Source of the DNA: a virus
Taxonomy: Duplodnaviria > Heunggongvirae > Uroviricota > Caudoviricetes
Reading direction: 5' to 3' (one strand)
Length of the DNA stretch: 25,337 bases
Virus record (IMG/VR): IMGVR_UViG_2698536560_000009
Span: 1-25,337 of that record
Shown: in pieces, positions 5,400 to 25,337 of the stretch
How the letters are laid out: every line of letters begins with the position of its first letter
Position numbering within the stretch: the stretch's first letter is position 1
The notes under the pieces: model-generated
Told to the model about the DNA's origin: nothing
Seen by the model: only the letters and a program-made list of their open reading frames with translations
The model's database searches: none
Made by a program: the position numbers and the translations under genes

Positions 5400-5435
5400 G
5401 GGTAACGTCCTGTTACCCGTTTCCTTTTTTTATTT
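5400..5435 (+). terminator. hairpin plus T-run, oriented antisense to the late operon
   Basis: gggtaac-gtcct-gttaccc stem-loop (5400-5418) followed by gtttcctttttttattt on the plus strand. It lies between the 964-aa gene and the tail tube gene. Confidence 0.3.
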
Positions 5436-8324: not shown

Positions 8325-9970
8325 GTACTACCCCCGTCTACTGTGACAAACTGAAATACATCAGTAGAATCTTTTGTAAAGGTTAATACTGGAACACGCC
8401 CATAAGACCATAAAATGTTTGTAGGCCAGGATATTTTATTTGCCCCTGTACCCTGCTTAATAAGCACCTGAAATGTTTGACTCTTTTTGTCATTACCACT
8501 TGCATTTAGTACAGAGAAGTTTGACGTTGGTTGTGATAGAGTCACGGTGAATGTAGTTTTACTATCACTCAAATCTATTTCTAATGAATTATTTACAAGG
8601 GTATTTAGTTTAAGAATATCATCTACAATTGTTACCTTCGTATCAATATCTTCCTTCAGAACCTTGTCTTTGTCATCGATCTGTTTCTTTGAATATGTTC
8701 CTACATCATCAAAATTCAGTACTATATTACTGTTAAGAGCATACCCGTTAATAGTGGTGATACGTAGTGCAAATAGATCATTTGACTGGGTACGTGAGTA
8801 CACATCAGGAATATCAGCAGCAACTAATTGAATGTTAGTTCCTGATAATGGCTTATTGTTGATTAAGTATGTTTTTGGTACATATGTGTTATTAGTAAAA
8901 ACAATACTTGCCATATCTGGGAGTTGTGCGGCTGTCAGTGTTATATTCTGGGAAAGACTTAAACCGTTAACAGTAGTTGTTTTTTTAACAAATGAAGTAT
9001 CAACCTGAGTCTGTGAATACACATCAAGAATATCTGCGGCAACTAAGTTTAATGCCGTACCGGATAGTGCATGACCGTTTAACTGGAATACTTTTGGGAC
9101 TACGTTCTGATCTATATACGTCTTACTGTATACATCAGCGATATCAGAAGCCAGTAGTGTAATATTAGCAGTTAGTGGTTTGCTATTGATAGTACGGGTA
9201 ATCGGTACGTAGTCTGCAAGGGATGCACTTGATGCAGCACCCAGTTCTGTCAGTGTAGGTTTATCAGCACTGGTATAGACCTTGTACCATGCCCCCATAG
9301 ATGCACCATAGTTACGCACGTTAATTATTGGCGTACCTGTCTTACTGATAACCAATTGTGTACCAAAGTTCGAATCAAGGTTATTAATACCGAGTACATC
9401 TGTCCCTGTTGGTGAACCTGCACCAGGGATCTTAATAAAAGCATTACCGTCACGCCCCTGATAACTTGGAAACTCAATACCGTTTGCACCTACGCCCCAG
9501 TCTCCGCGATTTAGAGGGACTATCGTACTGTCAAGAATACCCGAAGAAAGTTGTTCGTTTGGGGTGAATACGTAGGAACGGGAAGTAACAGAATCATAAT
9601 CACCACTGGTGGATACAGAAGCCAGATAACCATTATAAAGTGCATAGTTAACCGTAAGGTCATTCTGTCCTTCATCGGGGATCTCTACCTTCATTTGTAC
9701 TAATTGGCGACTTTTTACGATGTCATCAAGAAACTTATGTTTAGCAGGAACCCAGTTAACCGTAATAGTGACATCACCATATGTGCTATCACCTGCTACT
9801 TTTTCGATGTATTCAGAGTCATATGTTTCAATAGCAAGGGTTGCAGTACTGTGACCGAATGAAGGGAACCCGCTTAATTCTGGTACTTCTTTAAATCCCT
9901 TCGATTTGGGGTCACTGTTTAATGTGTCGGTGTTAATCCATACACTTGTGTTGTTAGTAATAAAAGCCAT
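8288..9970 (-). CDS. tail protein with gpV-like tube N-domain and C-terminal tail-fibre-type repeats
   Basis: The first ~140 aa align by eye with the 158-aa tube protein (VNW.P, NGY, GDYD.V..R.YVFT). This is followed by about five ~37-aa repeats of the form (I/V)N(S/G)KPLSG.NI.L.AADI.DVYS.T, resembling the phage tail fibre repeat seen in side tail fibres. Confidence 0.5.
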   Translation of the reverse strand: MAFITNNTSVWINTDTLNSDPKSKGFKEVPELSGFPSFGHSTATLAIETYDSEYIEKVAGDSTYGDVTITVNWVPAKHKFLDDIVKSRQLVQMKVEIPDEGQNDLTVNYALYNGYLASVSTSGDYDSVTSRSYVFTPNEQLSSGILDSTIVPLNRGDWGVGANGIEFPSYQGRDGNAFIKIPGAGSPTGTDVLGINNLDSNFGTQLVISKTGTPIINVRNYGASMGAWYKVYTSADKPTLTELGAASSASLADYVPITRTINSKPLTANITLLASDIADVYSKTYIDQNVVPKVFQLNGHALSGTALNLVAADILDVYSQTQVDTSFVKKTTTVNGLSLSQNITLTAAQLPDMASIVFTNNTYVPKTYLINNKPLSGTNIQLVAADIPDVYSRTQSNDLFALRITTINGYALNSNIVLNFDDVGTYSKKQIDDKDKVLKEDIDTKVTIVDDILKLNTLVNNSLEIDLSDSKTTFTVTLSQPTSNFSVLNASGNDKKSQTFQVLIKQGTGANKISWPTNILWSYGRVPVLTFTKDSTDVFQFVTVDGGSTWYGSLLMADMK

Positions 9971-9973
9971 AAA

Positions 9974-10410
9974 TTATTCCCCATAGCTAAAAGATATAGT
10001 TTGTGTATGCACATACATCGTATTAGTTGCTTCGGCCTGGGTAGTCATTAAGCTCTCTTCCAGAACAACATTGAAAACATCCATTGGAAGTAGTTTGTTC
10101 AATTCATTAATAAAACCACTTGCATAGATTGCATCAATCACTTTACTAATTTCATCTGATGCAAGTTTATAATTTTCGCCTACTGCTACAAAGTCCACTC
10201 TAAATTCACAGAGATAATTAATCCCACGTGGTATTAATTGACCATTAATTAATGTATTTGCTTTTTGAATGCGTGAACGTGTTACAGTACTGTCACCGAT
10301 GTATAACATTGGTTTGTCGTCTACCGTTGCTCTCGATTGATATTGAAGATTTACCAAAGTACTGAGATTATTAATCAAAAATTTCCGTATTGTGTAGTCT
10401 GAAGTTCGCA

Positions 10411-10411
<1 letters not shown>
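9974..10411 (-). CDS. putative neck / tail completion protein
   Basis: 145 aa ORF between the capsid gene and the tail genes, with TAATG start/stop overlap to the upstream gene. Assigned by position only. Confidence 0.3.
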
Positions 10412-12554
<2,143 letters not shown>

Positions 12555-13998
12555 GGGTTAGTACTGGTGAATAGCCCATCTCAGAAATTATTTGTTCTTT
12601 ACTCTTTAATCCATTTTCCATTGCGAGAATCTCAGTCTGTAAATCTTTCAGTGGGTCTAGACTAATATGACGTTGTGGAATGAAATTACATTCAGTTAGT
12701 TCAGTAAATTTACTAAATGGCAAATCCTTCAACATCGGGTTATTTAGCATTTCATTCTTGAGCCACTTAATATACAAAGGTTGAAGTACTGACTTAACCA
12801 GGTTGTTTTGTTTTGCAAGAAATGTATTTTGCTGAATTTTGTCTGTTAACTTCGAGGCACTGAATGATGCCCCTGCGGTCGAACCTGTTAACGTCTGTGG
12901 TGTAAGATCGAGTGACATCCCTATGAAAATCAACTGGTTATCTAGAAATTCCTGTAGTGCGTCGAATGTTTGTGATGGACTGAGTGACTTCACATCTTGA
13001 CCCTCACGAAGTTCTAACAGTACTCCACCCTCCATACGTGCAACCTGGTATTCATCTACATCAGAATCGTCATCATCATCAATATCTTCAAATGATGCAT
13101 CACGTGACGCATTCGTGATAAAACCCATGCTTTCCGCTGCTAATTGTCGCGTCTTGATTGACGCCCTCATGAATTTATCCAGGTCTGCCAGTAGTCCAGT
13201 ACCGCAAAATATATCGGGAATGCCGCGTTGCTGTTCTGGATAGTCAGTACTGAATAAGTGAAGGATCTCTTCTGCGGGTACACGTTCTGCTTCAGTACTA
13301 ACTGAGTACGATACGGGGTCATATTGTGTTAGAAAGTAAGCAACGGGTTTACCAGTGCCTTTTTCAAACTCAATACCATTTGAACGATAGTTACCATTAC
13401 TTAGCCATTGATTACCTTTCGTATCAATTACAGTACTGTCTAGTACTTCAATCTTCATACCAGGATGGATACGAATAAAACAACTACCATCAATTGAACG
13501 TGTCTTCTCTACCAGTGACTGGAATTTGGACATTTCAAGTTTTCCATTTAGGGAAAAACGTGCGGGGTCTTCACACCATGAGTAGAACGCATCGGCGAGA
13601 CGTTTATTAATATCATTATTAACATTGTCATCTTCAGCAACGTGAACACATGGACGATACGTAATACCATTTGCACCACATACACTACTGGCATTCTGTG
13701 CAATATACTTCTTATGAATTGGGTTACTCATACTAAGCTGGCGACTTTGTAGTACTGCCGTGTTCAATACACGGTTAATTACGGCATTGATCGAGCCACT
13801 CTTACCAACTGCACCAAATGTACCAAGTTGTGCGGCTGCGTTACCGTTACCGATGGAAGAAATGGAACGTTTGGTTTCAATACCTAAATTACCAAGTACT
13901 GGTTCAGTACGTATTTTTGCCTTACCAATATATAGTTTTGGTTCTTCTTTTGGCTGTTCCTTTGCCTTTCTAAAATTAAAATTAAACATATTCCCCTC

Positions 13999-14475
13999 TT
14001 ATCTTGTAAAACGTGTAATTGATTTGATGGGGTTGCCCGTCTTAACTTTTCGTACACGTGCCTTTTCATCTGCAAGTTTCTTTGCATATACTTGTCGCAT
14101 ACGGTAAAGTACTTCAGCACTTTCTGTTACTAGTGTTTTATTATTAATGGTAAGTTGTGTAGTACCACCCCCAAGAATCTTGGATTCAATAACCATATCA
14201 ATTTCATCGATCAATTCCTGTAACTGATTTATTTTATTTGCTGCTTCAAGTGGATCTTTAACAGTGAAAAGTTGTACAGACATACTACCATCGCTAATAA
14301 TTGCAGTACTGACACCAGCTACCCATTGAGATGTATCAATGGGTAAATTTGGAAAGTATTCTTGCTCATTACCTTTTGCATCAATGATTTTAATCGTTGC
14401 TGTTGATGGGAAGTCTAGTACTATAGTTTCACCAATAAAGATCGGGCTAGTTAAGTCCGTCTTACGTGGATTCAT
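13999..14475 (-). CDS. hypothetical head protein (gpW position between terminase and portal)
   Basis: 158 aa ORF with ATG at 14473-14475, lying between the large terminase and portal genes. No motif recognised. Confidence 0.35.
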   Translation of the reverse strand: MNPRKTDLTSPIFIGETIVLDFPSTATIKIIDAKGNEQEYFPNLPIDTSQWVAGVSTAIISDGSMSVQLFTVKDPLEAANKINQLQELIDEIDMVIESKILGGGTTQLTINNKTLVTESAEVLYRMRQVYAKKLADEKARVRKVKTGNPIKSITRFTR

Positions 14476-14487
14476 ATTAATTCCTTA

Positions 14488-16407
14488 TTAAAACCAGTTA
14501 CGATTATTAAGTGCTGAAAGTCCTTTTTTCTTAGGTTTTGATTTCTGCTTCTCTTTCTGTACTGGTTGTTGTTCTGCTTTAGTTTTTATGGATTCTTCTA
14601 CTTTAGTATTTAGTTCTTTTTGTTTAGCTCTATACTCTCGCAACTTCCTATACGGTTGTGCACCAAGTGCCTGTATCTTGTGATCAATCGCTGCTAATGA
14701 GTAGACGAGCGTATCGAGACATTCGTTACGCTCTCCATTTGGATTCTCCCATACCATCACTGAACCTTTTCGTACTAGTTTTTCTGCTGTAAGTTGGAGG
14801 AAGTAATCATCGACAAGGGAATGACTGAAGTGTATATTAGTACTATACTCTCCCCCTTCACATGCCTGTCGTAATAACTTCTTAACCTGGTGCTTCAGTA
14901 CTTGAGTATTAATATTAACCAGTTGATGTCCTGCCGTTGTGGAATCCTTCGTGATGGGACCAGTCTGTGTGTTTGCACCCTTAATTGCATGCCATCGTCC
15001 CCCACTGGAAGAACAAAAGCGATATATGGAACTGGTTGCAGATCCGTTTGAGCTATCAATAAAGGATCTCAGTACTGGTACTTTTCTACCTGAAGTGGTT
15101 TTAAATATACTCTTACTATAATTAAGTAGTTCAGTATATGCCTTATCTTCATACTTAGTACAATCGACACCATAAAACATACGGTGGTCCAGAACCCATA
15201 TATTCTTTTCATCAAATGCAATAGTACTACATTCTAAGCGGTCTATCTGTTGGTCACATGCCAGTACAATACCAAGTGCATTATCTGGAATATGTTTTAC
15301 ATCTAAATCAAAGTCGCGTAAGTTTTCCAGTACTGTAAGATCTTCTTTAATATTATTCTTATCTACCCACGGTAAACCGAGTACGTTATTATAGAAAGAT
15401 TGTTCTTCAAAGTTTATCCATGAGTTCTTAAAGTCTTCAACAATCTTCTCAATAGTAGTAATCGGTGAATATAGTCTATTAACATGGTATCCCCTGAAAC
15501 CCATCACATGCAGTCTGTGTGCTTTCCAGTAACCTTTTGCAACCATCCGTGCACGTTGCCCTTCAGTGATTACTTCATCACATCCTGGACAGTGTAGGCG
15601 TGCTGTAGTGGGTTCTGGTGCATTACGTCGTTCGTTGAACTTCACCCATTCAAACTTTATATTCTCCCATTCTAAAATATGGTCATGATCACAATGTGGA
15701 CACACGACATGAAAATGTCTCTGGTCTGAGAGTTCCCATTGCTGGCAGATCATATCGTCCTGTACTAATGGTGTGGAGGCCATCACGATCAGGGAGTTCT
15801 TACCAAACTGAGTTGCACGCTGTTCTATGAGTGATAGGGGGTTGCCCTCATCTTGTTCTGGATCTACACCTGATAATTCATCAATGAAGATTGCAGGAAC
15901 TGTAAGCGAGCGTAGGGACTGGCTAGAATTGAGGTTAACAAAGTATGTCTTAGTACCGTCAACGTTCTGTTGAGTGTGTAGATCGTTTACTGCATTCTTA
16001 TCTGATTTGTCAGTGATTAATGCTTGAAGGTTTGGACACGCATTAATAGTATCCATCCATTTACCAGTACGGAACTTTTTCACAGTACTACCACTACTAC
16101 CCGCAAATATCATATGGGAGGGTTTATTTGCCATCCTGTAAAGCATTGCATTTTGTAGTATTGTTGTCTTGAGTAATTGTGCACTACTCATTAAACAGAT
16201 CTTCTGTACTGATGGATCTACTGTGGCGTTTAGGGGTTCTACTTGAAATGAAAATAATTTAGTTTTTTGTTGTGCCAGTGGTCCATCTGGAAATACAGTA
16301 TATTGTTCACACCATTCAGATGGTTTAATCTTCGGTGGGGGTAATATTGATTTCAGACTCTGGTTCAGAATCTTCATCATCTTCTTCTGGCTGTTCTTCG
16401 TACTCAT
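14488..16407 (-). CDS. terminase large subunit (lambda gpA-like)
   Basis: 639 aa. Contains Cys/His clusters (CPHCDHDH, HCPGCDE) and an acidic IFIDELSG segment typical of gpA-family terminases. Follows a Nu1-like small subunit gene. Confidence 0.8.
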   Translation of the reverse strand: MSTKNSQKKMMKILNQSLKSILPPPKIKPSEWCEQYTVFPDGPLAQQKTKLFSFQVEPLNATVDPSVQKICLMSSAQLLKTTILQNAMLYRMANKPSHMIFAGSSGSTVKKFRTGKWMDTINACPNLQALITDKSDKNAVNDLHTQQNVDGTKTYFVNLNSSQSLRSLTVPAIFIDELSGVDPEQDEGNPLSLIEQRATQFGKNSLIVMASTPLVQDDMICQQWELSDQRHFHVVCPHCDHDHILEWENIKFEWVKFNERRNAPEPTTARLHCPGCDEVITEGQRARMVAKGYWKAHRLHVMGFRGYHVNRLYSPITTIEKIVEDFKNSWINFEEQSFYNNVLGLPWVDKNNIKEDLTVLENLRDFDLDVKHIPDNALGIVLACDQQIDRLECSTIAFDEKNIWVLDHRMFYGVDCTKYEDKAYTELLNYSKSIFKTTSGRKVPVLRSFIDSSNGSATSSIYRFCSSSGGRWHAIKGANTQTGPITKDSTTAGHQLVNINTQVLKHQVKKLLRQACEGGEYSTNIHFSHSLVDDYFLQLTAEKLVRKGSVMVWENPNGERNECLDTLVYSLAAIDHKIQALGAQPYRKLREYRAKQKELNTKVEESIKTKAEQQPVQKEKQKSKPKKKGLSALNNRNWF

Positions 16408-16846
16408 ATGATCCTAATTCCCTTAGTTTCTCATCAATCCTTTCTTCTAGTTTTATCCGCAATGTATCCGCATCTTCACTTTCAAATAGTTCTACATAGA
16501 TAGATGCCGGAATACTTCTTAGTACTCCGCGTAGTGCTGCAAAATAACCAGTTAGTGTTTGAGTTACATAATCAGTACTCAATACCTTTTCAGTACTGAT
16601 ATTTAATTCAATCTCAACTAAATCTGCTTCAAGTGATATCTTGCGTAATTTCTCTTTTTCAATCTGTTCTTTTACATCAGTATTTCGCAATGGTTGGATA
16701 ATATTAATTAGTATCCATTGATCTATTTCTTTTTTACTTGCTTTCTTTGGGTGTGGCATTCCACGTTTTGCCCATTCACGGCTTACAGTACTGTCATTAA
16801 CTCCCATACGTTCTGCAATTTCGTTTGTTGTATATCTATCGTTCAA
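16325..16846 (-). CDS. terminase small subunit (lambda Nu1-like, N-terminal HTH)
   Basis: The N-terminal TNEIAERMGVNDSTVSREWAKRGMP resembles the Nu1 winged-HTH (…IRTIQNWQEQGMP), and the C-terminus is acidic. The start codon at 16844-16846 is TTG; the first in-frame ATG would truncate the HTH. Confidence 0.6.
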   Translation of the reverse strand: MNDRYTTNEIAERMGVNDSTVSREWAKRGMPHPKKASKKEIDQWILINIIQPLRNTDVKEQIEKEKLRKISLEADLVEIELNISTEKVLSTDYVTQTLTGYFAALRGVLRSIPASIYVELFESEDADTLRIKLEERIDEKLRELGSYEYEEQPEEDDEDSEPESEINITPTED

Positions 16847-16904
16847 TTTGTTTATCCAGGTTTTGTTTGTGTTATTTAAAATATTTAATATGCAAAAAAA
16901 ATAG

Positions 16905-16915
16905 TTCGCGGCGAA
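16905..16915. other. GC-rich near-palindrome TTCGC-G-GCGAA, candidate cosN-like site
   Basis: An isolated GC-rich symmetric element in the AT-rich region about 60 bp upstream of the Nu1-like terminase start. It resembles the GGCGGCGA core of lambda cosN. A 7-bp inverted repeat acttccc/gggaagt lies at 16915-16921 and 16940-16946. Confidence 0.25.
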
Positions 16916-16952
16916 ACTTCCCGATTGTGTCTATTCAGAGGGAAGTACCTAT

Positions 16953-16981
16953 AGTATTTATTAACCCTACCATGTTATACT
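16953..16981 (+). promoter_or_regulatory. candidate sigma70-type promoter with extended -10 (TGtTATACT) for the SLATT-NTase operon
   Basis: TG at 16973-16974 and TATACT at 16976-16981, about 30 nt upstream of the ATG at 17011. The -35 is weak. Confidence 0.3.
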
Positions 16982-17010
16982 GTTAGGGAATCGGATTTGT
17001 TGGAGTGTTT

Positions 17011-17514
17011 ATGAATCAGAAGCTCATCCAAACAGTCATTTCTGAGTGTCATCGTATAGAAGAGGACGCTCTTTACTCTTCTAAATCTCATTATAATGTT
17101 TCTGATAGATGGGATAAGCTGAATCTGTGGTTCGGTGTACCATTAGCAATCTTAACCGCTTTGAGTGGTATTGCCGCAATCAAGAGTACAGCCAATGCTG
17201 TTGTAGCTATTTCCATAACTGCTACAATTCTAACTGCATTAAATACGTCTCTTAACCCAAGTAAGCGTGCTGCACTTCATAAATCAGCAGCAAATGAATA
17301 TAATAAATTAAAGAATGAAGTTAGAATATTTAGGGAAATATTGACTTCTAATTTTGATTTTACTGATAAAACTTTGATTGAAAAACTTACGAGTTACTCT
17401 GATCGACGCAATCAACTTAATTCAAGTTCGCCAAATATTCCTCGGTGGGCTTATGAGAAAACTCAAAGAGATGTTAACCAAGGCTTTACTAAGTATAATA
17501 TTGACAAGGAATAA
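17011..17514 (+). CDS. SLATT-like two-transmembrane effector protein
   Basis: 167 aa from the ATG at 17011 (GGAG 6 nt upstream; the ORF track begins at a GTG at 17005). Two adjacent hydrophobic helices (LWFGVPLAILTALSGIAAI and AVVAISITATILTALNTSL) are flanked by short soluble regions. The stop lies 2 nt before the NTase start. The family call rests on architecture and on the SMODS neighbour. Confidence 0.45.
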   Translation: MNQKLIQTVISECHRIEEDALYSSKSHYNVSDRWDKLNLWFGVPLAILTALSGIAAIKSTANAVVAISITATILTALNTSLNPSKRAALHKSAANEYNKLKNEVRIFREILTSNFDFTDKTLIEKLTSYSDRRNQLNSSSPNIPRWAYEKTQRDVNQGFTKYNIDKE

Positions 17515-17516
17515 AC

Positions 17517-18293
17517 ATGACAGTCAGTACCTATCTTGAGTCTATTAAAAGCAATGCTTATCAAAGAGATATTACAATAACGAATTCAATTGCAACCATA
17601 AAAAACAGACTGAATGGTTATTTTGCTGGTGAACTTGTTAGTCATTTTGTATTTGGCTCATATTCACGTAATACAATGCTTCCTCGTAGCTATGATCCTT
17701 CTTCTGATGTTGATTATATGGTTGTATTCAAAAATGTAATATATCAGCCTCAGACCTACCTAAACAAGCTAAGGGGTTTTGTAAATTATTACTATCGTAC
17801 ATCTGAAATAAAGCAAAGCCACCCTACTATTCAATTGAACCTTAATCATATTACTTTCGAGCTTGTCCCTGCATCTCATAATATTTTATTTGGTTATCAA
17901 ATCCCTTCCAACCAGGATTTTTTGAACCGTTGGATGAATACCGATCCCAATGCGTTCAATACTGATTTAACTAATTGCAATAAAAATAATAACAATTTAA
18001 TTAAGCCTCTTATTCGCATAATGAAATATTGGAATGCCAATGCAGGTTATGTCTTTGAGTCGTATCAACTTGAAAAAGATATTGTTAGCTTTAACTATTT
18101 TTGGTGCTCTACCCTTAAAGAATATTTTTACTCTGCTGTAGAACAACTTTCAGGTTCCTATTATCTCGCACAATGGAAAAAAGATAAGATTCAGCGTCTA
18201 AAAAATTCAGTTATGATGTCAAAATATTATGAGCAGTTAAACAATCATTTTGCCGCCGAAAATGAAATAAAGAAAATTTTACCCATAAAATAA
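17517..18293 (+). CDS. SMODS / CD-NTase-like nucleotidyltransferase (Pol-beta superfamily)
   Basis: 258 aa. Carries the GS-x15-DVD signature (FGSYSRNTMLPRSYDPSSDVDYMVVF), a downstream acidic ITFELV, and a LIRIMKYW motif like the OAS/cGAS-type helix. AAGGA Shine-Dalgarno 8 nt upstream. Confidence 0.6.
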   Translation: MTVSTYLESIKSNAYQRDITITNSIATIKNRLNGYFAGELVSHFVFGSYSRNTMLPRSYDPSSDVDYMVVFKNVIYQPQTYLNKLRGFVNYYYRTSEIKQSHPTIQLNLNHITFELVPASHNILFGYQIPSNQDFLNRWMNTDPNAFNTDLTNCNKNNNNLIKPLIRIMKYWNANAGYVFESYQLEKDIVSFNYFWCSTLKEYFYSAVEQLSGSYYLAQWKKDKIQRLKNSVMMSKYYEQLNNHFAAENEIKKILPIK

Positions 18294-18298
18294 TCTTG

Positions 18299-18326
18299 CC
18301 CCCTTATATTACTAATTATAAGGGGG
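18299..18326. terminator. perfect 10-bp stem hairpin immediately after the NTase gene
   Basis: cccccttata - ttactaat - tataaggggg, starting 6 nt after the stop at 18291-18293. A U-rich tract follows on the minus-strand side, so it may act bidirectionally. Confidence 0.4.
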
Positions 18327-18540
18327 TACAGCTCATTGTCTTTGCTTGAATCCAAAAAATCATTCTCGATATTTTTACTTGTAAGAATTGAGTACAGTTG
18401 AAACATTCCACCGTCGTACAGCTAAATGAGATTGCTAAGATTGTATGACCCGCTCCTCTACCATCAGTATCAGGAGATTACATTCCCTTATCGCTAAAGA
18501 TAGCAGTTTTGTGAGAAGAGATAGTTTCCAATTTCTAATT

Positions 18541-18567
18541 TATAAGCCAGTTAGTTGCTGGCTTATA
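18541..18567 (-). terminator. hairpin 4 nt downstream of the tail-anchored protein gene
   Basis: tataagccag - ttagttg - ctggcttata, a 10-bp stem. There is no clear U-run. Confidence 0.3.
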
Positions 18568-18571
18568 ATCA

Positions 18572-19246
18572 TCATGATTTAACAGATACTAATGCCAGAA
18601 TAGATGCTACTGCGGCAGCCAACGAAACTATAAGACTTAATGTAGGTATATATAATGCTGTAACTCTTCTAAACTTGTTCTCTTTGTCGTTATACTGAAT
18701 AAAAAACATCTTAATTTTCAGTAAGCGGATTAAAATTAAATCTTTTAATGCGGCCTTGTGTAAAACACCTGTAACACGGTGATAATGAAGTAAATTCTTT
18801 ACTGCTTTCTCTATTTTTTTTGGTGTTATGTGTTTAACGTTATATGAATGATGGACAATCAAGGAATCATGTGTTGCTAATGAATCATCTGAAGTAGACG
18901 GAAAAAGAATTATATGCACAGCCCCCGTCGCACTATATGTAATTGAAAGTGCGGCTCCTTTTTGCCAATGATGATTAAACTTTATGCTTTCGGTAGTTTT
19001 TTCCTGCCGCATATTTCCAGTCATACGATCAGCGATCTGAAATGTCAGGCAATCAAAACCATAACCATCTGGTTCATCTTGCATATCAATTATATTAAAT
19101 CTTATATGCTCTCCTGATAATTGGGTTGATAGTATTTCTAATTGCTTTTTTATTTTAGGTTTGAATATAATCCAGTTTACATTAGAAATTAATCTTCTAA
19201 GTTCGTCTCTTTCAAACTTTGCTCTAAGCTCTTTCTTCCACTCCAT
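18572..19246 (-). CDS. hypothetical tail-anchored membrane protein
   Basis: 224 aa with a GGAG Shine-Dalgarno and ATG at 19244-19246. A soluble His-rich domain is followed by a single C-terminal transmembrane helix (LYIPTLSLIVSLAAAVASILALVSV). Sits alone on the minus strand between hairpins. Confidence 0.5.
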   Translation of the reverse strand: MEWKKELRAKFERDELRRLISNVNWIIFKPKIKKQLEILSTQLSGEHIRFNIIDMQDEPDGYGFDCLTFQIADRMTGNMRQEKTTESIKFNHHWQKGAALSITYSATGAVHIILFPSTSDDSLATHDSLIVHHSYNVKHITPKKIEKAVKNLLHYHRVTGVLHKAALKDLILIRLLKIKMFFIQYNDKENKFRRVTALYIPTLSLIVSLAAAVASILALVSVKS

Positions 19247-19569
19247 TATCTCCCCCTAAGCCTCTTGCTACTATAGATTATTTAGATTCTATCGTACCAT
19301 AATTGATAAACTTACCCTAGGTCGATAATCAATAGTATATGTATGTTCTATTTGGTGGTAAAGTGTTAATGCTACATGGTATAGGCTATAATGATGATTA
19401 CTCATAAAATCAATTCTTATATCGATATTTTCAGTTTATTATCGCAGTTTGAGTATTCGTCCATGTATAAGTTTGCATAAAAAATAGCACACTGGTTAGA
19501 GTAAAATCATATTGAACATTGTGTTTGAATGCTCTATATTTTGGTGATGTTAACTTTTGAGATTGCAGA

Positions 19570-20373
19570 ATGAAATTTGTCTCTGAAAGAATTGACCATG
19601 TAAAAATAGCTAATGGATATTGTGTAATATGTGGTAATTTTGGCAAATTAAAAAAAGACCATGTTCCCCCGCAATGTGCATCTAAACCTTCACCTATGTT
19701 ACAAAAAACGATTTCTGAGTATTTCTCTAATACTCGAGTACCACCAATTAAAGCAAAAAGCGGGACAACTTTTCGTACCATTTGTCACAATTGTAACTCG
19801 AATATTTTAGGATCAATGGATGCAGAAATAGGCCGTGTTACAACTGAATTCATCGAAAAGTTAAATGATTATTTTAGTGGTAAGTTCTTTTACAAAAATT
19901 ATATTTCATTAAAATTTGATGCGGATAAATTTCTAAGAGCAATGATTGGACACCTTCTGGCTGCAACTTCAGTAAAAGATTGTATGAAGCCTATTGTTGA
20001 TAGTCCTTTTTATACTCCATTGAGAAATTTTGTATTAGGCAGGAATCCAGACATTGGGGCAACTCATAATATTTACTATTGGTTTTATCCATTCAGAAAA
20101 CAAATTACTGCTCAGTCAGTTACATTCTACAATAATGGACATCATAGTATATGTTCTTGCTTACATTTTTTCCCAATATCTTTTTTGGTTACACTGAAGG
20201 AGCAAGGAACATTTCCTATTCATGCAACTGAAATGACTCAATATGATCAATCTCTTCATTTTAATATGACAACGGCTAATATTGATTATGCTTCATTTCC
20301 CTTTGTAGGTTTAAAGAATAATCAATTTATGATGGTAATTTCTGGTCATACTTGTGTTAGTTATCCTAAATGA
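19570..20373 (+). CDS. HNH-motif (His-Me finger) nuclease-like protein with uncharacterised C-terminal domain
   Basis: The N-terminus contains C-x2-C ... DH ... C-x2-C-N (CVICGNFGKLKKDHVPP ... TICHNCNSN). The spacer is longer than in the canonical HNH motif. The C-terminal ~180 aa are unrecognised. Confidence 0.5.
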   Translation: MKFVSERIDHVKIANGYCVICGNFGKLKKDHVPPQCASKPSPMLQKTISEYFSNTRVPPIKAKSGTTFRTICHNCNSNILGSMDAEIGRVTTEFIEKLNDYFSGKFFYKNYISLKFDADKFLRAMIGHLLAATSVKDCMKPIVDSPFYTPLRNFVLGRNPDIGATHNIYYWFYPFRKQITAQSVTFYNNGHHSICSCLHFFPISFLVTLKEQGTFPIHATEMTQYDQSLHFNMTTANIDYASFPFVGLKNNQFMMVISGHTCVSYPK

Positions 20374-20400
20374 TTTTCAACTAAAGGTTGAGAAATATAG

Positions 20401-20445
20401 ACATAAGAACATAAGAACATAAGAACATAAGAACATAAGAACATA
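20401..20445. repeat. tandem octanucleotide repeat (ACATAAGA) x 5.6
   Basis: acataaga x5 then acata, in the intergenic region between the HNH gene stop (20373) and the next gene (20591). Confidence 0.9.
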
Positions 20446-20457
20446 GTCCAACTGTTC

Positions 20458-20519
20458 AGCGACACGTCCCACACACACCAACTAAACAAACCTACCCTTT
20501 ATGAGTGGGGCGTGTCGCT
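20458..20519. repeat. GC-rich inverted repeat with 15-bp arms (one mismatch) and a 32-nt CA-rich spacer
   Basis: agcgacacgtcccac (20458-20472) pairs with gtggggcgtgtcgct (20505-20519); the spacer is acacaccaactaaacaaacctaccctttatga. Confidence 0.8.
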
Positions 20520-20590
20520 AATAGTTTACGCCAGAATGGTTATTATGGTAAAGTTCATTTTTCACTTTGATATATTGGATTTCTAAAAAA

Positions 20591-21142
20591 ATGGAAGCTG
20601 AAACCATTACACAACTCATTGCAGTCGGTGGTACTTTAGGCGGTGCATTAATAGCTGCGGGTGTAACATTGGCAAGCCAATTAATCACTAAAAAATATGA
20701 GAACGAAAAACTAAAAAAACAACTTTTATTCAAAATACTCGAAGATGAATTAAAAGAAAAAAAGCAAACTATTAAACCTTTCATTCAGTTTATTAATTCT
20801 TTGAATCTTCCAGAAAATTTTAATTTTTATGATGATGGTGATCTTTTAGATCAAATTATGCTTTATAAACAGGATTTAATTAAAAGTAAAGCAAGTGACT
20901 TCCTTCTCGATTATACATTATACATGACACCACAAATTCACGATGCGATTTGGACGGTTACTAATGCTATAAATGATTTTGAAGAATTGGGAGCACGGTT
21001 TTATGATTCATCATTGAGTAAACAAGAAAACGATGAAATATTACTTAGAAATTGTAGCGGTAAGCCAACTGAAATTTGGGAAGCTTTGATGAAATTGAAA
21101 GGCTTGCTCTATAGTGAAGTTAACATAGCTGATAAATTATGA
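20591..21142 (+). CDS. hypothetical membrane-anchored coiled-coil protein
   Basis: The ORF track starts at a TTG at 20567; the first ATG is at 20591. An N-terminal transmembrane helix (LIAVGGTLGGALIAAGVTLASQLI) is followed by a K/E-rich helical domain. The stop overlaps the next gene's ATG as ATGA at 21139-21142. Confidence 0.5.
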   Translation: MEAETITQLIAVGGTLGGALIAAGVTLASQLITKKYENEKLKKQLLFKILEDELKEKKQTIKPFIQFINSLNLPENFNFYDDGDLLDQIMLYKQDLIKSKASDFLLDYTLYMTPQIHDAIWTVTNAINDFEELGARFYDSSLSKQENDEILLRNCSGKPTEIWEALMKLKGLLYSEVNIADKL

Positions 21143-21840
21143 ATATAAAAACTATAAACTCTACTCTTGTCGGCATTGTTGCAGTACTTCTGTTTTTAGC
21201 AGTCTTAGTACTCGTTAAGGTTCTATTCGCTGGTAGCAGGGGGTTTGAATGGGGGAACGCAGCTGATTTAACAAGTGCGTTATGCAATATCGTGATTGCG
21301 TCTACAGCTCTTTGTGCTGCTTTTGTAGCAAATAATTGGTTCGTTCAGAATAAAAAATTAAAATCCCTTTCTACCTCACATCAGTTGGCTATGAAATTTG
21401 AGATGCAGTTATGGGAAATAAATTCACGTTTATATAATGATGGTATAGTTCGTGCTTCCATCAGGAAATATGTTCAGGATAATAAAGAACTGACAGATGA
21501 AATAAAATCTAAAGTTGCTGCTGAAATTAATAAAAAGGCCACAAGTGATTTATCTGAACTTGCTAAGCTATATACGACAAGGTCAATGCTAGCCAGGTTT
21601 GATATTAAGTTAAGCGAACGGCTTGAAAATTTATTTAAAAATATATTAGAGTTAAGGCAGTCATATTTAGACAATCAATATATATATCTATTGACCATAT
21701 GCAAACATATTAATTGCCCCAAGCATGAGGACGTAATTGCAGCTACAGAAAATCTTGAAAGTGTTAAAAGAGAGCTAGCTGCCATATTTCAGTACGAGCT
21801 ATGTGAAACAAATATTGATACTGATTATTCGTTCAGCTAA
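21139..21840 (+). CDS. hypothetical 2TM membrane protein (paralog A)
   Basis: 233 aa with an N-terminal hydrophobic hairpin (LVGIVAVLLFLAVLVLVKVLFAGSRGFEWG, then LCNIVIASTALCAAFVANNWF) and a soluble C-terminal domain. The N-terminus is about 35% identical by eye to that of the 22818-23561 protein. Confidence 0.5.
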   Translation: MNIKTINSTLVGIVAVLLFLAVLVLVKVLFAGSRGFEWGNAADLTSALCNIVIASTALCAAFVANNWFVQNKKLKSLSTSHQLAMKFEMQLWEINSRLYNDGIVRASIRKYVQDNKELTDEIKSKVAAEINKKATSDLSELAKLYTTRSMLARFDIKLSERLENLFKNILELRQSYLDNQYIYLLTICKHINCPKHEDVIAATENLESVKRELAAIFQYELCETNIDTDYSFS

Positions 21841-21877
21841 ATTTATAGTTAATTGATGTAAATAAAAAGGAAAGCTT

Positions 21878-22699
21878 ATGCTTGGGGAGTCATTTAATCA
21901 ATTCATGGTAGAGTCTTATTTGTCCAGTACCTCAATAGGTGGTGGGCTTACTGCTGTGCGGAAATGTAGAGCACATGATAAAGGTAGCTTCTATAGCAGC
22001 TTCTTTCAATTATCAATTGGCATAGAAAGGTTTTTTAAGATTATCTTCATACTCAATCATATGATCGAAAATAATCTTGAGAAGCCAGACTTCCGTACAC
22101 TTAAAAAATTCAGCCATAATATTGCGGAGCTTCATAAAAACTGTTCAAGCTATGGTGCTAGCCATTTACCCAATTTGGAGTGGGAATTAAACTGGCAGCA
22201 AAACCTCATATTAGAAATGCTTTCTGAATTCGCTGATGCTTCAAGATATTATAATCTTGATAAAATTGTAAAAGGCAAAAAAGAAGTCAAAGATCCGTTA
22301 GCACAGTGGAACGAAATAATTAATTCTTGCTTCCGTAAACACATTACTGATTCTAGAAAACAAAAACTAGAAAGAGAATTAAATTTATGGGCCGACAAAT
22401 ACAAAGCATACGGTTACACCTGGAATAGAGGTCTTGATGGTGCGATTTTAAGCCAAATTGATGAGTATATACTTTCCTGGAAAGTAATAAACGTTTCACC
22501 TTATATTGTGTTTGAAATCATTGATATGTTGCAGCCTTATTATTATCTAATTTCTAAATTTAAAGATGATATTGACAACATTGAGCACAGTAAAGGGATA
22601 AGAGAACCTCTGGTTCCATATCTCCATGAGATATTTGTATTTCTACTTGTCCATAAGAAGTTAGCTTTGAGTAGAAAAACATGGAGTTTCCGTTATTAA
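21878..22699 (+). CDS. hypothetical soluble protein flanked by the two 2TM paralogs
   Basis: 273 aa with an AAGGA Shine-Dalgarno and ATG at 21878. An R-x4-H (RKCRAH) motif lies near the N-terminus, but no confident family assignment is possible. Confidence 0.45.
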   Translation: MLGESFNQFMVESYLSSTSIGGGLTAVRKCRAHDKGSFYSSFFQLSIGIERFFKIIFILNHMIENNLEKPDFRTLKKFSHNIAELHKNCSSYGASHLPNLEWELNWQQNLILEMLSEFADASRYYNLDKIVKGKKEVKDPLAQWNEIINSCFRKHITDSRKQKLERELNLWADKYKAYGYTWNRGLDGAILSQIDEYILSWKVINVSPYIVFEIIDMLQPYYYLISKFKDDIDNIEHSKGIREPLVPYLHEIFVFLLVHKKLALSRKTWSFRY

Positions 22700-22735
22700 T
22701 TACATGGACATGTATCACATTATTAATCAGAGAGG

Positions 22736-22753
22736 CACTAATCATGATTAGTG
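22736..22753. promoter_or_regulatory. 18-bp perfect palindrome cactaatcatgattagtg, candidate operator upstream of 2TM paralog B
   Basis: Perfect dyad in the 118-bp gap between the genes at 21878-22699 and 22818-23561. Confidence 0.35.
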
Positions 22754-22817
22754 GAATATATATCCATCAATGCTACATATATACATCTATGTCTTTTATT
22801 TAAGAAATGAGATTAAC

Positions 22818-23561
22818 ATGCTTAATATTAAAAAATATAATTTAATACTACTAAGTACCGTACTATTACTGCTGCTAATTGCTATATTAGTTGGTGTAAA
22901 AATATTATTTTCTGGTTCGAAAGGATGGGAGTGGGTAACTTTAATTGGAACATTATGTAGTGCTGTAGGTACATTAGGTACACTATGGGTAGCCTACCAA
23001 GCATACCTAAAAGCACCTGAATGGTTGTCGCAAAAACATTATGATGTAGTATATGGTGTTATTGAGAAAGCAATTTATCAAGATCTTAATAAAGTACGTA
23101 CTTCAACCTTAATTTTAAAACATCAATTAGTGACATTCTCCAAAAAATATCGCAATCATTTAAAAAACGAGACCATACCCCAAGATTCACATGATGAGTT
23201 TATGAAGGAAACAGATGCTCTTGTTTCCGATTTATTCTTCACTTCTTACTCCGTTATTAATTCCTTAAAATCTATTGATAGAACTAATTATGCTTTAAGC
23301 GAATACACAAAAAACATTATTGCTGAACTTAAATTAAATATTGATGAATATAACGGACTGAGTATCGATTTCTATATTGCAAGTTCTGAGGTTCCTGCAC
23401 TTATACAGGCCGATGAATGTGTGAGGGATCAAACTAGTAGTGAGCTTTTCGTTATACAGTCAAAAGCAATTTCACTTCACAATAAGATTTCATCTTTCAT
23501 AAAAGATATATATGATGATAACTATCCAATTGATAACTTCATAACTCTAAAGAAAAAATGA
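22818..23561 (+). CDS. hypothetical 2TM membrane protein (paralog B)
   Basis: The likely start is the ATG at 22818 (MLNIKKYNLILL...); the ORF track begins at 22770. The N-terminal hairpin LILLSTVLLLLLIAILVGVKILFSGSKGWEW matches paralog A (shared VK.LF.GS.G.EW). Confidence 0.5.
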   Translation: MLNIKKYNLILLSTVLLLLLIAILVGVKILFSGSKGWEWVTLIGTLCSAVGTLGTLWVAYQAYLKAPEWLSQKHYDVVYGVIEKAIYQDLNKVRTSTLILKHQLVTFSKKYRNHLKNETIPQDSHDEFMKETDALVSDLFFTSYSVINSLKSIDRTNYALSEYTKNIIAELKLNIDEYNGLSIDFYIASSEVPALIQADECVRDQTSSELFVIQSKAISLHNKISSFIKDIYDDNYPIDNFITLKKK

Positions 23562-23696
23562 TTAATACCCTATCTTGCAAACCTATTAAGTTTGTAGAAT
23601 TACTGATGACTTAATAGAAAAAGTCATACTTGATTCAAAATCATTAAGGATGCATATTAAAGAAACGTTTACATTTCCCAAATAAGCATCAGTTCT

Positions 23697-23730
23697 AAAA
23701 CACCGGATTTATCATTGCATCTGGTGTTTT
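23697..23730. terminator. hairpin at the convergent junction of the plus-strand island and minus-strand small genes
   Basis: aaaacacc / ggtgtttt 8-bp stem with an 18-nt loop. The right arm overlaps the last codons of the 66-aa ORF. Confidence 0.25.
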
Positions 23731-23912
23731 GAATAAATTTCTATTAGTAAATCTCTGTGTAGATTAGTACTAGGTAGTTCTTGCAATAATTGTATGTTAT
23801 GCTTTTCAATTACTTGATAACCTAGCTCTAGTACTTCTACAATTCCTTTTTTAAAATCAAACTCATAGATGTACTCTCCATAGTTATGGTGTATAAAATT
23901 GACGCCTTTCAT
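23712..23912 (-). CDS. hypothetical small protein (second gene of coupled pair)
   Basis: 66 aa with a GAGGA Shine-Dalgarno 7 nt upstream. Its ATG overlaps the stop of the 103-aa ORF as ATGA at 23909-23912. Confidence 0.4.
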   Translation of the reverse strand: MKGVNFIHHNYGEYIYEFDFKKGIVEVLELGYQVIEKHNIQLLQELPSTNLHRDLLIEIYSKHQMQ

Positions 23913-24220
23913 TCGTAGTCCTCACTTATTTTATTCATTTGTGTTTGAATAATAATTAATCGATTAATGTCGATCTCTGTTTGCAGTGCTAAGCTTGCTT
24001 GGAATAGTTCTGATTCACTCATCCTAGATAGATCAGGTGTTTCATTTATTTGAGTACCATCAATCTTCTGATGATAGAATTGTAGTCCTTCTCGTTGCAG
24101 TACTACACGTGTTGGGTGATTAAAGTAGACAATCTGATCCGTGAATACTGTCATAGTACTGTGATCCTCATACGTGTATCGGTGAAACAGATCATACTCT
24201 TCAGTTTTTAGTAATTTCAT
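23909..24220 (-). CDS. hypothetical small protein (first gene of coupled pair)
   Basis: 103 aa with an AGGA Shine-Dalgarno 9 nt upstream of the ATG at 24218-24220. No transmembrane segment and no recognised motif. Confidence 0.45.
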   Translation of the reverse strand: MKLLKTEEYDLFHRYTYEDHSTMTVFTDQIVYFNHPTRVVLQREGLQFYHQKIDGTQINETPDLSRMSESELFQASLALQTEIDINRLIIIQTQMNKISEDYE

Positions 24221-24329
24221 TTTTATTATCCTCTGTAGTACTGGTATTTATTAAAAAGGTGTGATTCTATAATAAAGGCCAGTTTATTTTCATAGTCTAA
24301 TGGGTATACACAGACTCCCTACTCACTTT

Positions 24330-24690
24330 CATTTCCTCATAGTATGCCTCTCGGTGGCTTGTGTGTTGCGTATTCATCCGGCGGTGCGGCTTCACACTTT
24401 AATTAATTAAGTTCCTAGCTAGTATGGGTAGTGGTTCACTTTAGTGAGCTTCAACAGCGAACGACCCAAACAAGGGAGTTTACGACCGCGTAGTACTCAC
24501 GAATACTTTAGACCGTAGGTCGACCCCAAATACTTTATTAATCACTTTGGTGAGTACATGGGGTTTGTTTGAGCGAAAGCAAGTAAAGGACTTGCTCGAC
24601 CTGAAAGGGCGAAAGTCTGGTTATAAATTCTAAGATCAAAGGCGAGCTTGCGAGGTTTTGATCTTCGGACTTCAGTCCATTTTATATGTG
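24330..24690 (+). ncRNA. GC-enriched structured non-coding segment (candidate ncRNA or late-transcript leader)
   Basis: No convincing ORF. Contains several local stems, including aagatcaaa/tttgatctt, agcaagt/acttgct, gtactcac/gtgagtac and two GCGAAAG (GNRA-type) hairpin loops. Strand and class are undetermined. Confidence 0.2.
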
Positions 24691-24707
24691 TTATTATATT
24701 ATAGTGT

Positions 24708-24719
24708 TCCATTAATGAA
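24708..24719. promoter_or_regulatory. operator-like palindrome copy 1 (tccattaatgaa, one mismatch)
   Basis: Imperfect copy of the TCCATTAATGGA dyad. Confidence 0.3.
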
Positions 24720-24782
24720 GTAAAATTCACAATTTCAACGGTAGAATGCGGGTTTCAAGCCATATATGTTGGAATATAACAC

Positions 24783-24794
24783 TCCATTAATGGA
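24783..24794. promoter_or_regulatory. operator-like 12-bp perfect palindrome TCCATTAATGGA (copy 2)
   Basis: Perfect dyad, 41 bp from copy 3. Confidence 0.4.
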
Positions 24795-24823
24795 ATAAAA
24801 TCTCTATTAGTGGATTAACTCAT

Positions 24824-24835
24824 TCCATTAATGGA
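24824..24835. promoter_or_regulatory. operator-like 12-bp perfect palindrome TCCATTAATGGA (copy 3)
   Basis: Perfect dyad, 14 nt from the stop of the 162-aa ORF. Confidence 0.4.
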
Positions 24836-24848
24836 GTTAAAAAATGCT

Positions 24849-25337
24849 TCATTTACCATCAATGAAACCCTGTAGAATAATAATTAGTTCCTCTGCTGAT
24901 GCTCCGCTATCATGTGCGTTTGCTAACGTCTCATAGAACTGTTTGTTGTCTATGTAGTGCATTCCGTCCTTTTGCACTTTGAATAGCTTCACTTTGCGTT
25001 TATGTGCTGCTATAAGAGCTTTTGATACTGCGGTTGCTACACGCCTTACCTTTACTGCGGTAGATTCACTTACACGTTCCTGAACTTCTTTTATATGATA
25101 GTCCTGGTAAAGATGTAACCTGGCTAAAACTTTCTCAGTACTGAATGTGATCAAATTGAAAACGATGTAATAGATCTTAAATCCACTATATGGCTTACCG
25201 TTACCCATTGGGACTGATGCTATTGCTTCATCAATTATCTGTTTTGCTTCTGGTGTAAGATCGTTGTCATAGTCTCCAAAATTCCCCGCAATGCGTAGGA
25301 ATGGTGTATTGTCGTAATCTCGTGCTTTATTTGCCAT
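24849..25337 (-). CDS. hypothetical protein (possible regulator; start coincides with window edge)
   Basis: 162 aa ORF whose ATG is at 25335-25337, exactly at the window end, so the true start could lie beyond the window. Stop at 24849-24851. Followed by a region with three TCCATTAATGGA palindromes. Confidence 0.4.
   Translation of the reverse strand: MANKARDYDNTPFLRIAGNFGDYDNDLTPEAKQIIDEAIASVPMGNGKPYSGFKIYYIVFNLITFSTEKVLARLHLYQDYHIKEVQERVSESTAVKVRRVATAVSKALIAAHKRKVKLFKVQKDGMHYIDNKQFYETLANAHDSGASAEELIIILQGFIDGK

Follow-up and report, generated by a model that had tools for sequence, protein, structure and literature searches.

We analysed the gene at positions 19570-20373 on the plus strand of a 25,337-nucleotide stretch of viral DNA (IMG/VR record IMGVR_UViG_2698536560_000009, Caudoviricetes; the whole stretch is called the window below). 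In its product, a His-Me finger stabilised by zinc has all of the catalytic-type residues and a long omega-loop, and the gene is a single-gene, horizontally mobile cargo module found in defence-rich neighbourhoods; both conclusions are firmly supported. Their best combined explanation is a self-contained conflict nuclease, in which the finger is embedded in a larger body and which travels as a one-gene mobile module, a tentative reading that we place slightly below even odds. The open reading frame (ORF) runs from ATG to TAA and is a genuine, complete coding sequence for 267 amino acids. The protein is 100% identical to RefSeq entry WP_001609855.1, a 'hypothetical protein' of Escherichia coli N61 and 55989, which had the working identifier PDP1 in the DefensePredictor screen. 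The accession was found in the supplementary tables of that study (Science 2026; PMC13092281); neither the accession nor the PHROG identifier was found in main texts of the literature.

A preliminary description of the window, made from the letters alone, had noted two CxxC pairs, a DH dipeptide and a CHNCN segment in the N-terminal 65 amino acids, and had proposed an HNH or His-Me finger nuclease with a longer-than-usual spacer. All of these elements are present, but the motif extends further than was thought and spans residues 18-84. The C18xxC21, D30-H31 and C72xxC75-N76 segments are invariant in 25 close homologues. When distant relatives are included (127 sequences, mean identity 21%), C72, C75, N76, D84 and H128 are still invariant, as is P202 within the C-terminal body, and conservation of C18, C21, D30, H31, P33 and P34 is at least 90%. 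Because the Cys/His pattern is conserved across 127 sequences at such low mean identity, it is not due to chance. The long spacer is also a property of the family, since every member has an insertion of 33-60 residues between H31 and C72.

Searches with the native protein gave HNH matches below the accepted thresholds. The score with HNH_5 (PF14279) was 14.4 bits, against a gathering cut-off of 27.5, and that with Endonuclease_7 was 11.5 bits, also sub-threshold. No match was found in PADLOC and NCBIfam scans, and the sole match in PHROGs was phrog_21495, a family of unknown function. The low Pfam scores are explained by the loop of 33-60 residues that splits the motif. Among the relatives, 50 of the 127 matched HNH_5 at E≤0.01 (best value 1.9e-6), and no other Pfam family recurred. 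After in silico deletion of residues 36-62, the protein aligned to positions 1-53 of the 56 in HNH_5 (23.1 bits, E 7e-5) and to positions 19-75 of the 82 in Endonuclease_7 (20-21 bits, cut-off 23.6), in both cases still below the gathering score. A full-length family profile retrieved nothing from the PDB sequences. The loop-less profile, searched against 177,635 PDB sequences, gave three matches, all of which are His-Me nucleases: the Geobacter HNH endonuclease 4H9D (E 0.004), Hpy99I and the HNH domain of IscB. In these matches the CxxC, DH.P and CxxCN columns are aligned. A hidden Markov model search, which the preliminary description had proposed as a check, thus leads to HNH nucleases once the loop is removed.

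Structure prediction gave a consistent picture. Two AlphaFold models were obtained, with predicted local distance difference test values of 86 and, with a deeper alignment, 95.8 (at least 94.7 in all five models). In the model, a strand formed by residues 24-32 ends with D30-H31 and is followed by the insertion, a second strand (66-72) and a helix (73-102) that carries C75, N76 and D84, so that the elements of the predicted beta-beta-alpha core occur in the order expected for a His-Me finger. A zinc knuckle is also present, with C18, C21, C72 and C75 conserved, one CxxC pair located before strand beta1 and the other at the N-terminus of the helix; a treble-clef zinc knuckle of this kind is found in many members of the superfamily, not in all. 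In His-Me fingers, an Asn or His of the first helical turn holds the metal ion, often with help from a polar residue at position +4 or +8 and from an Asp, Glu or His that precedes the catalytic His, and the omega-loop between the two strands is variable and can be elaborate (PMC5714182). Residues N76, D30 and D84 (at +8) fit this metal-ligand rule.

The nuclease fold suggested in the preliminary description is therefore supported by motif conservation, by the matches of the loop-deleted profile and by the order of predicted fold elements. A non-nuclease zinc ribbon, which that description had considered as an outcome that would speak against its proposal, does not fit the conservation of D30, H31, N76 and D84 together with the cysteines. 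On the basis of sequence and model, we place the protein in the His-Me finger superfamily, as an HNH-type 'HNN' variant and not as a formal member of Pfam family HNH_5. The assignment is made at superfamily level only, because the gathering threshold of HNH_5 was not reached.

Comparison with known nucleases indicates what is shared and what is particular to the protein. If the loop is disregarded, it resembles HNH_5 or group 1 His-Me nucleases such as 4H9D of Geobacter metallireducens residue for residue, with a CxxC pair, a [D/E]H-x-P segment ending strand beta1, and a second CxxC followed by Asn. Unlike in 4H9D and HNH_5, the motif is split by an omega-loop of 33-60 residues, and the finger resides in a body of about 270 residues that has no counterpart there. 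The order of zinc and catalytic residues, C-x2-C ... D-H ... C-x2-C-N, is also that of T4 endonuclease VII and Hpy99I (PF02945). Whereas the omega-loop is minimal in endonuclease VII and Hpy99I (PMC5714182), it is long in the protein studied here, in which there is no evidence for a dimerisation architecture or junction specificity.

The remainder of the protein, residues 85-267, is predicted with high confidence to consist of helices and a multi-stranded sheet that form one compact body with the finger (predicted template modelling score 0.93). This part had been left unassigned in the preliminary description, and the same holds after the present searches: the approximately 180 C-terminal residues gave no match in Pfam, NCBIfam, PADLOC or PDB, the latter searched both as sequences and as structures. 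A search of BFVD returned one uncharacterised phage protein as the sole match. The SAVED domain was not matched in Pfam or PADLOC, and fold searches gave no SAVED- or CARF-like fold. Pfam and fold searches also gave neither an SRA, EVE or winged-helix fold nor any other reader fold that is known.

The family is large. A profile search of 1.84 billion cluster representatives identified 1,170 relatives at E≤1e-3, counted as clusters at 50% identity. Nearly all of these are 260-290 amino acids long, so that the Cys/His part is always accompanied by the remainder of the protein; the extra N-terminal regions of three longer relatives (P0086, P0097, P0143) had no Pfam match. A scan of one genome per species gave 70 loci, mostly in Gammaproteobacteria, with distant copies in cyanobacteria and a few other groups. 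A closer alignment was used for the locus scan, for which the wide alignment was too divergent. Many family members carry the name 'chaperonin' in NCBI or UniRef (P0001, P0002, P0005, P0008 and P0009, and the plasmid-encoded H64, H65, H78 and H83), and the source names of the distant members are all 'hypothetical'. No chaperonin similarity was found in any scan of the family, so judging from the sequences the label looks like a propagated misannotation; it should be corrected in the public records.

Members of the family are carried by several kinds of mobile DNA. They were found on 47 IMG/VR viral contigs, on 60 plasmids, 44 of which are conjugative, and in islands with integrases or resolvases. 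When all neighbouring genes were clustered (69 loci, one per species), no conserved partner gene emerged. The commonest neighbour was a small serine recombinase (14 of the 69 loci), and integrases, large serine recombinases, a helicase-like protein and S24 peptidases were also frequent; these are backbone genes of mobile elements. A conserved small flanking ORF was not found at these loci, and hence there is no candidate immunity gene. The suggestion in the preliminary description that the gene could stand alone agrees with these results.

Defence genes are abundant close to the family. The 148 genes sampled across species at up to 2.5 kb from the gene matched 252 PADLOC models at E≤1e-6, as compared to 80 models for 148 genes located 7-10 kb away, a comparison that is qualitative because many models cover one family and a genome-wide background is not included. 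The matches near the gene include the cyclase of an anti-phage signalling system based on cyclic oligonucleotides (CBASS), bSEFIR, DRT, GajB, a type I specificity subunit, NsnB and PD-T4-2. In the window itself, the gene has the SLATT-SMODS pair on one side and the validated defence system DS-13 on the other. A family gene also lies among the tail genes of the P2-like phage pro147, and an accessory or defence hotspot within tail genes has been reported for P2-like phages (PMC13586616); this tail-gene locus of P2 is not covered in Rousset 2022.

Within E. coli, the gene occurs in 88 complete genomes and the whole prophage apparently only in N61. This strain alone matches the complete terminase region; in the other 87 the match is confined to its last ~890 bp, and they keep the block from this terminase stub to the last cargo gene at ≥99% identity. 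In 55989, the one remnant that was inspected, the block (15956-23561 in the window; 8487-16130 in locus L130) is bounded by IS100/IS3 insertion sequences (IS) inside a genomic island.

A separate observation concerns the surroundings of the family in Enterobacterales islands and IncF-type plasmids. A small serine recombinase of about 200 amino acids and a ~480-amino acid protein with a ResIII/DEAD-like N-terminus recur there (loci L013-L018, L025, L031 and L060; plasmid L132, positions 8907-11080). The two may represent a shared mobile backbone that carries the gene.

The same protein has already been examined for defence activity. Table S6 of the DefensePredictor study lists four candidates from the same block in one ECOR strain, which include PDP1 (Table 1), and the prediction as a defence gene extended to a second member of the family, with a log-odds of 8.36 (PMC13092281). 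Each candidate, together with the native sequence upstream of it, was inserted into pCV1, a vector with a pSC101 origin and without a promoter of its own, brought into MG1655 and screened with 24 diverse coliphages, and 42 of the 94 candidates were validated (PMC13092281). PDP1 was not among these, and VANC and COAT, two other candidates from the block, also tested negative, each on its own. MG1655 with pCV1-PDP1, which carries the gene alone, was not protected against any of the 24 coliphages (PMC13092281, Tables S6 and S11), and this negative panel lowers the probability of a role in defence. The strain carrying pCV1-PDP1 alone was viable (PMC13092281). A restrained or specific nuclease would account for the viability and for the lack of an immunity gene, but a protein that is not expressed or not active would do so equally well. 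According to the authors, candidates that failed to validate may require other phages, hosts or gene boundaries (PMC13092281). For the defence nuclease put forward in the preliminary description, the defence-rich context thus stands, but the identical protein was non-defensive against the 24 coliphages tested (PMC13092281, Table S6).

With these points taken into account, a self-contained conflict nuclease could work as follows. The protein would be a cytoplasmic, zinc-stabilised HNH-type nuclease-like protein, the core of which (two strands separated by an omega-loop of ~35 residues, followed by the helix) is built into one compact body of 267 residues. As a single-gene accessory module it would move among prophages, conjugative plasmids and integrative islands, and usually land amid anti-phage systems. 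Its role would be defence against, or exclusion of, other mobile DNA, with a target that is narrow or conditional. The C-terminal body may supply target recognition, may restrain the active site until a specific trigger or substrate is encountered, or both. Cleavage of nucleic acid, recognition or autoinhibition by the C-terminal body, and the conflict or defence role are what we infer from the combined data. A more far-reaching version holds that the family, of at least 1,170 clusters, consists of single-protein immune nucleases in which the His-Me finger is joined to a previously unseen sensor or regulator fold, and that the trigger or target lies outside lytic-coliphage panels, e.g., conjugative or plasmid DNA, specific temperate phages or satellites. 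We regard this version as possible but rather doubtful.

Two types of known system are informative for this proposal. Single-chain type IV restriction enzymes with an HNH domain (McrA-like enzymes and winged-helix-HNH fusions) likewise combine HNH and a second domain in one polypeptide, stand alone without an immunity gene, and occur in defence islands. In modification-dependent HNH enzymes of this type the second domain is thought to select the target (PMC11037411). The protein studied here differs from them in having no detected reader fold, and it gave no protection against a panel that included phages with modified DNA. DS-3, a split PIN protein with proposed autoinhibition, is similar in being a lone nuclease-domain protein that is encoded on E. 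coli accessory DNA, was predicted by DefensePredictor and has no cognate antitoxin. However, DS-3 was validated and depends on its catalytic residues, whereas PDP1 did not validate.

Among the alternatives, the one that best survives is a selfish homing-type or mobility endonuclease, which would cut a site in related elements that lack the gene and be copied into them by repair, with no benefit to the host. Such an enzyme would suit a single gene that is found exclusively on mobile elements, whose neighbours change from locus to locus and whose taxonomic distribution is patchy. HNH-type enzymes make up many of the freestanding homing endonucleases (PMC5714182, Table 1), and the negative outcome of the defence test is in line with this reading as well. 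Nevertheless, Pfam scans of the protein and its relatives gave no known sequence-specific DNA-binding module, and the flanking genes vary between loci, leaving no evident common target gene. Retention of the gene at ≥99% identity in 87 E. coli genomes, in a remnant that is IS-bounded in 55989, and conservation of the whole body of about 270 residues over deep divergence, also argue against homing, which we consider unlikely.

A nuclease that serves the life cycle of the element itself appears still less probable. It might assist the terminase in cos cleavage, resolve branched DNA in the manner of endonuclease VII, or degrade host DNA, and the weak Endonuclease_7 profile matches, the frequent presence of recombinases nearby and one prophage arrangement are in line with this. 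In that arrangement, in Enterobacter prophage L009, a family gene occupies the same cargo slot and lies directly beside the small terminase gene. In the window, on the other hand, three genes separate the gene from the terminase, it is transcribed divergently from the packaging genes, and the gpA-type terminase has its own nuclease domain. The gene also persists where the phage is reduced to a stub, and it is present on plasmids and small islands. In the P2-like phage pro147 the family gene stands alone on the opposite strand, in the interval from tail sheath to tail fibre genes. Over the 69 loci there was no conserved positional link to any life-cycle gene.

The packaging version of this alternative is contradicted by context. 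The preliminary description had already called a packaging role unlikely, since the terminase is gpA-type and not adjacent, and retention of the gene in IS-bounded remnants, plasmids and non-phage islands is in agreement with that judgement. A packaging HNH protein similar to HK97 gp74 was rejected for the same reason: the conserved position next to the terminase is missing in the remnants, plasmids and islands and in the pro147 copy among tail genes.

A non-catalytic zinc-finger protein, e.g., a DNA-binding regulator or scaffold, with an HNH-like shape but no cleavage activity, is given the same small chance as a life-cycle nuclease. Inactive His-Me fingers normally lose the catalytic-type residues; an 'inactive Smad' mentioned in PMC5714182 may be compared. 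In this family, despite a mean identity of 21%, conservation of D30, H31, N76 and D84 is as strict as that of the zinc cysteines, and a protein that neither catalyses nor binds metal would hardly account for this.

The least probable of the alternatives is that the protein is a component of a larger system formed with its neighbours, either as an additional effector of SLATT-SMODS or as an accessory of DS-13. A SLATT-SMODS pair lies at a distance of up to 5 kb from the gene in E. coli, and from family members in five other Enterobacterales species (L015-L018 and L025; 53-64% protein identity). Order, spacing and orientation vary, however, with convergent genes in L015-L017 and other genes intervening elsewhere, and the pair is absent from the sister elements L013 and L014 and from 63 other species. 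Because of these inconsistent arrangements and its absence from sister elements, SLATT-SMODS is a neighbouring cargo module and not an operon partner, and an operon including the gene was rejected. HNH effectors fused to nucleotide sensors do exist in CBASS (Cap5), and a Cap5-like HNH-SAVED effector was rejected as well, given that neither a SAVED match nor a CARF-like fold was found and that the association with SMODS is inconsistent. Finally, DS-13 defends without the gene (PMC13092281), and none of the other 69 loci contains a DS-13 homologue, which makes this alternative very unlikely.

The nuclease domain is of a known kind, but there is no curated entry for the split motif, for the accessory body or for the family in its entirety, and the protein had already been flagged and tested negative in a large screen. 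If the protein is active, it would represent a fairly large uncurated family of HNH nucleases that stand alone, in which the active-site motif is split in an unusual way and the accessory body has no counterpart in the PDB. Among the carriers of the family are the main vehicles of horizontal transfer in Enterobacterales, such as conjugative plasmids of E. coli, Shigella and Klebsiella. Finding its substrate and the way it is restrained could reveal a new sensing module, or defence directed against plasmids instead of lytic phages. An inactive or merely selfish protein would still be a useful documented false positive for machine-learning prediction of defence genes. An HNH protein in a defence island will not surprise a specialist; the family size, the spread on conjugative plasmids and the unmatched fold make it a reasonable target for biochemistry.

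The features of the gene and its surroundings are collected in Table 1. The promoter candidate listed there should be read along with the outcome of the promoter and terminator scans, which as a whole were not above shuffle expectation.

Table 1. Positions of motifs and neighbouring genes in the window, with DefensePredictor results (log-odds and experimental outcome, PMC13092281) where available.
Feature	Position	Strand	Remarks
SLATT (two-transmembrane effector) and SMODS nucleotidyltransferase	17005-17514 and 17517-18293	+	Neighbouring cargo module, context only
VANC, upstream gene (224 amino acids)	18572-19246	-	Near-identical to WP_000454879.1; log-odds 9.46, defensive FALSE
Sigma-70-like promoter candidate TTGAAC-17-TATATT	19512-19540	+	Consensus match only; ~30 bp 5' of the ATG
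PDP1, the gene studied	19570-20373	+	WP_001609855.1; log-odds 7.50, defensive FALSE
First zinc knuckle, C18-V-I-C21	19621-19632	+	At least 90% conserved; between strands 15-17 and 24-32, just before beta1
D30-H31-V-P-P, end of strand beta1	19657-19671	+	Predicted general-base His preceded by metal-ligand Asp; aligned to DH.P of 4H9D
Omega-loop insertion, residues 35-66	19672-19767	+	Between the two core strands; family hallmark
C72-H-N-C75-N76	19783-19797	+	Second zinc knuckle and, in the first helical turn of the core, the predicted metal-binding Asn; invariant
D84	19819-19821	+	+8 from N76 on the same helix; predicted extra metal ligand; invariant
C-terminal alpha/beta body, residues 85-267	19822-20370	+	Contains invariant H128 (19951-19953) and P202
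DS-13 (TMO1), two-gene transmembrane system	20591-21142 and 21139-21840 (overlapping)	+	Two genes immediately downstream of PDP1; log-odds 12.50, defensive TRUE, named DS-13; context only
COAT, next downstream gene	21878-22699	+	Near-identical to WP_000900255.1; log-odds 12.36, defensive FALSE

The window represents a prophage whose insertion site adjoins yggS. The minus strand carries the genes for structure and packaging as far as the gpA-type terminase, after which comes a cargo region that is AT-rich, with a guanine-plus-cytosine fraction of 0.30-0.34 versus ~0.40. The cargo genes are, in order, SLATT and SMODS, the divergent 224-amino acid gene, the gene studied here, the two-gene transmembrane pair and two further genes. 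The two proteins of the transmembrane pair are identical at 181 of 183 and 231 of 233 positions to WP_000387046.1 and WP_001022716.1, respectively, which form the validated DS-13 system. No Rfam family was found in region 16800-25337.

Some further sequence features of the prophage were observed. A 964-amino acid ORF in the tail region (5430-8324, minus strand) is intact in the window and interrupted by an IS3 insertion in N61 (L001, 4770-8889), with an offset of ~1.26 kb; the window therefore stems from a prophage copy other than that of N61. A perfect tandem array of ACATAAGA (5.6 copies) is located at 20401-20445, between the stop codon of the gene and DS-13. E. coli 55989 lacks the array at this position, which probably explains a 32-bp length difference in the other 87 genomes, and the array may be a variable-number repeat in the region upstream of DS-13. 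An imperfect 21-bp tandem repeat (TGGAATAAACACTCCATTAA-like, 3.2 copies) is present at 24770-24835, just downstream of the minus-strand ORF 24849-25337, and may constitute a set of binding sites.
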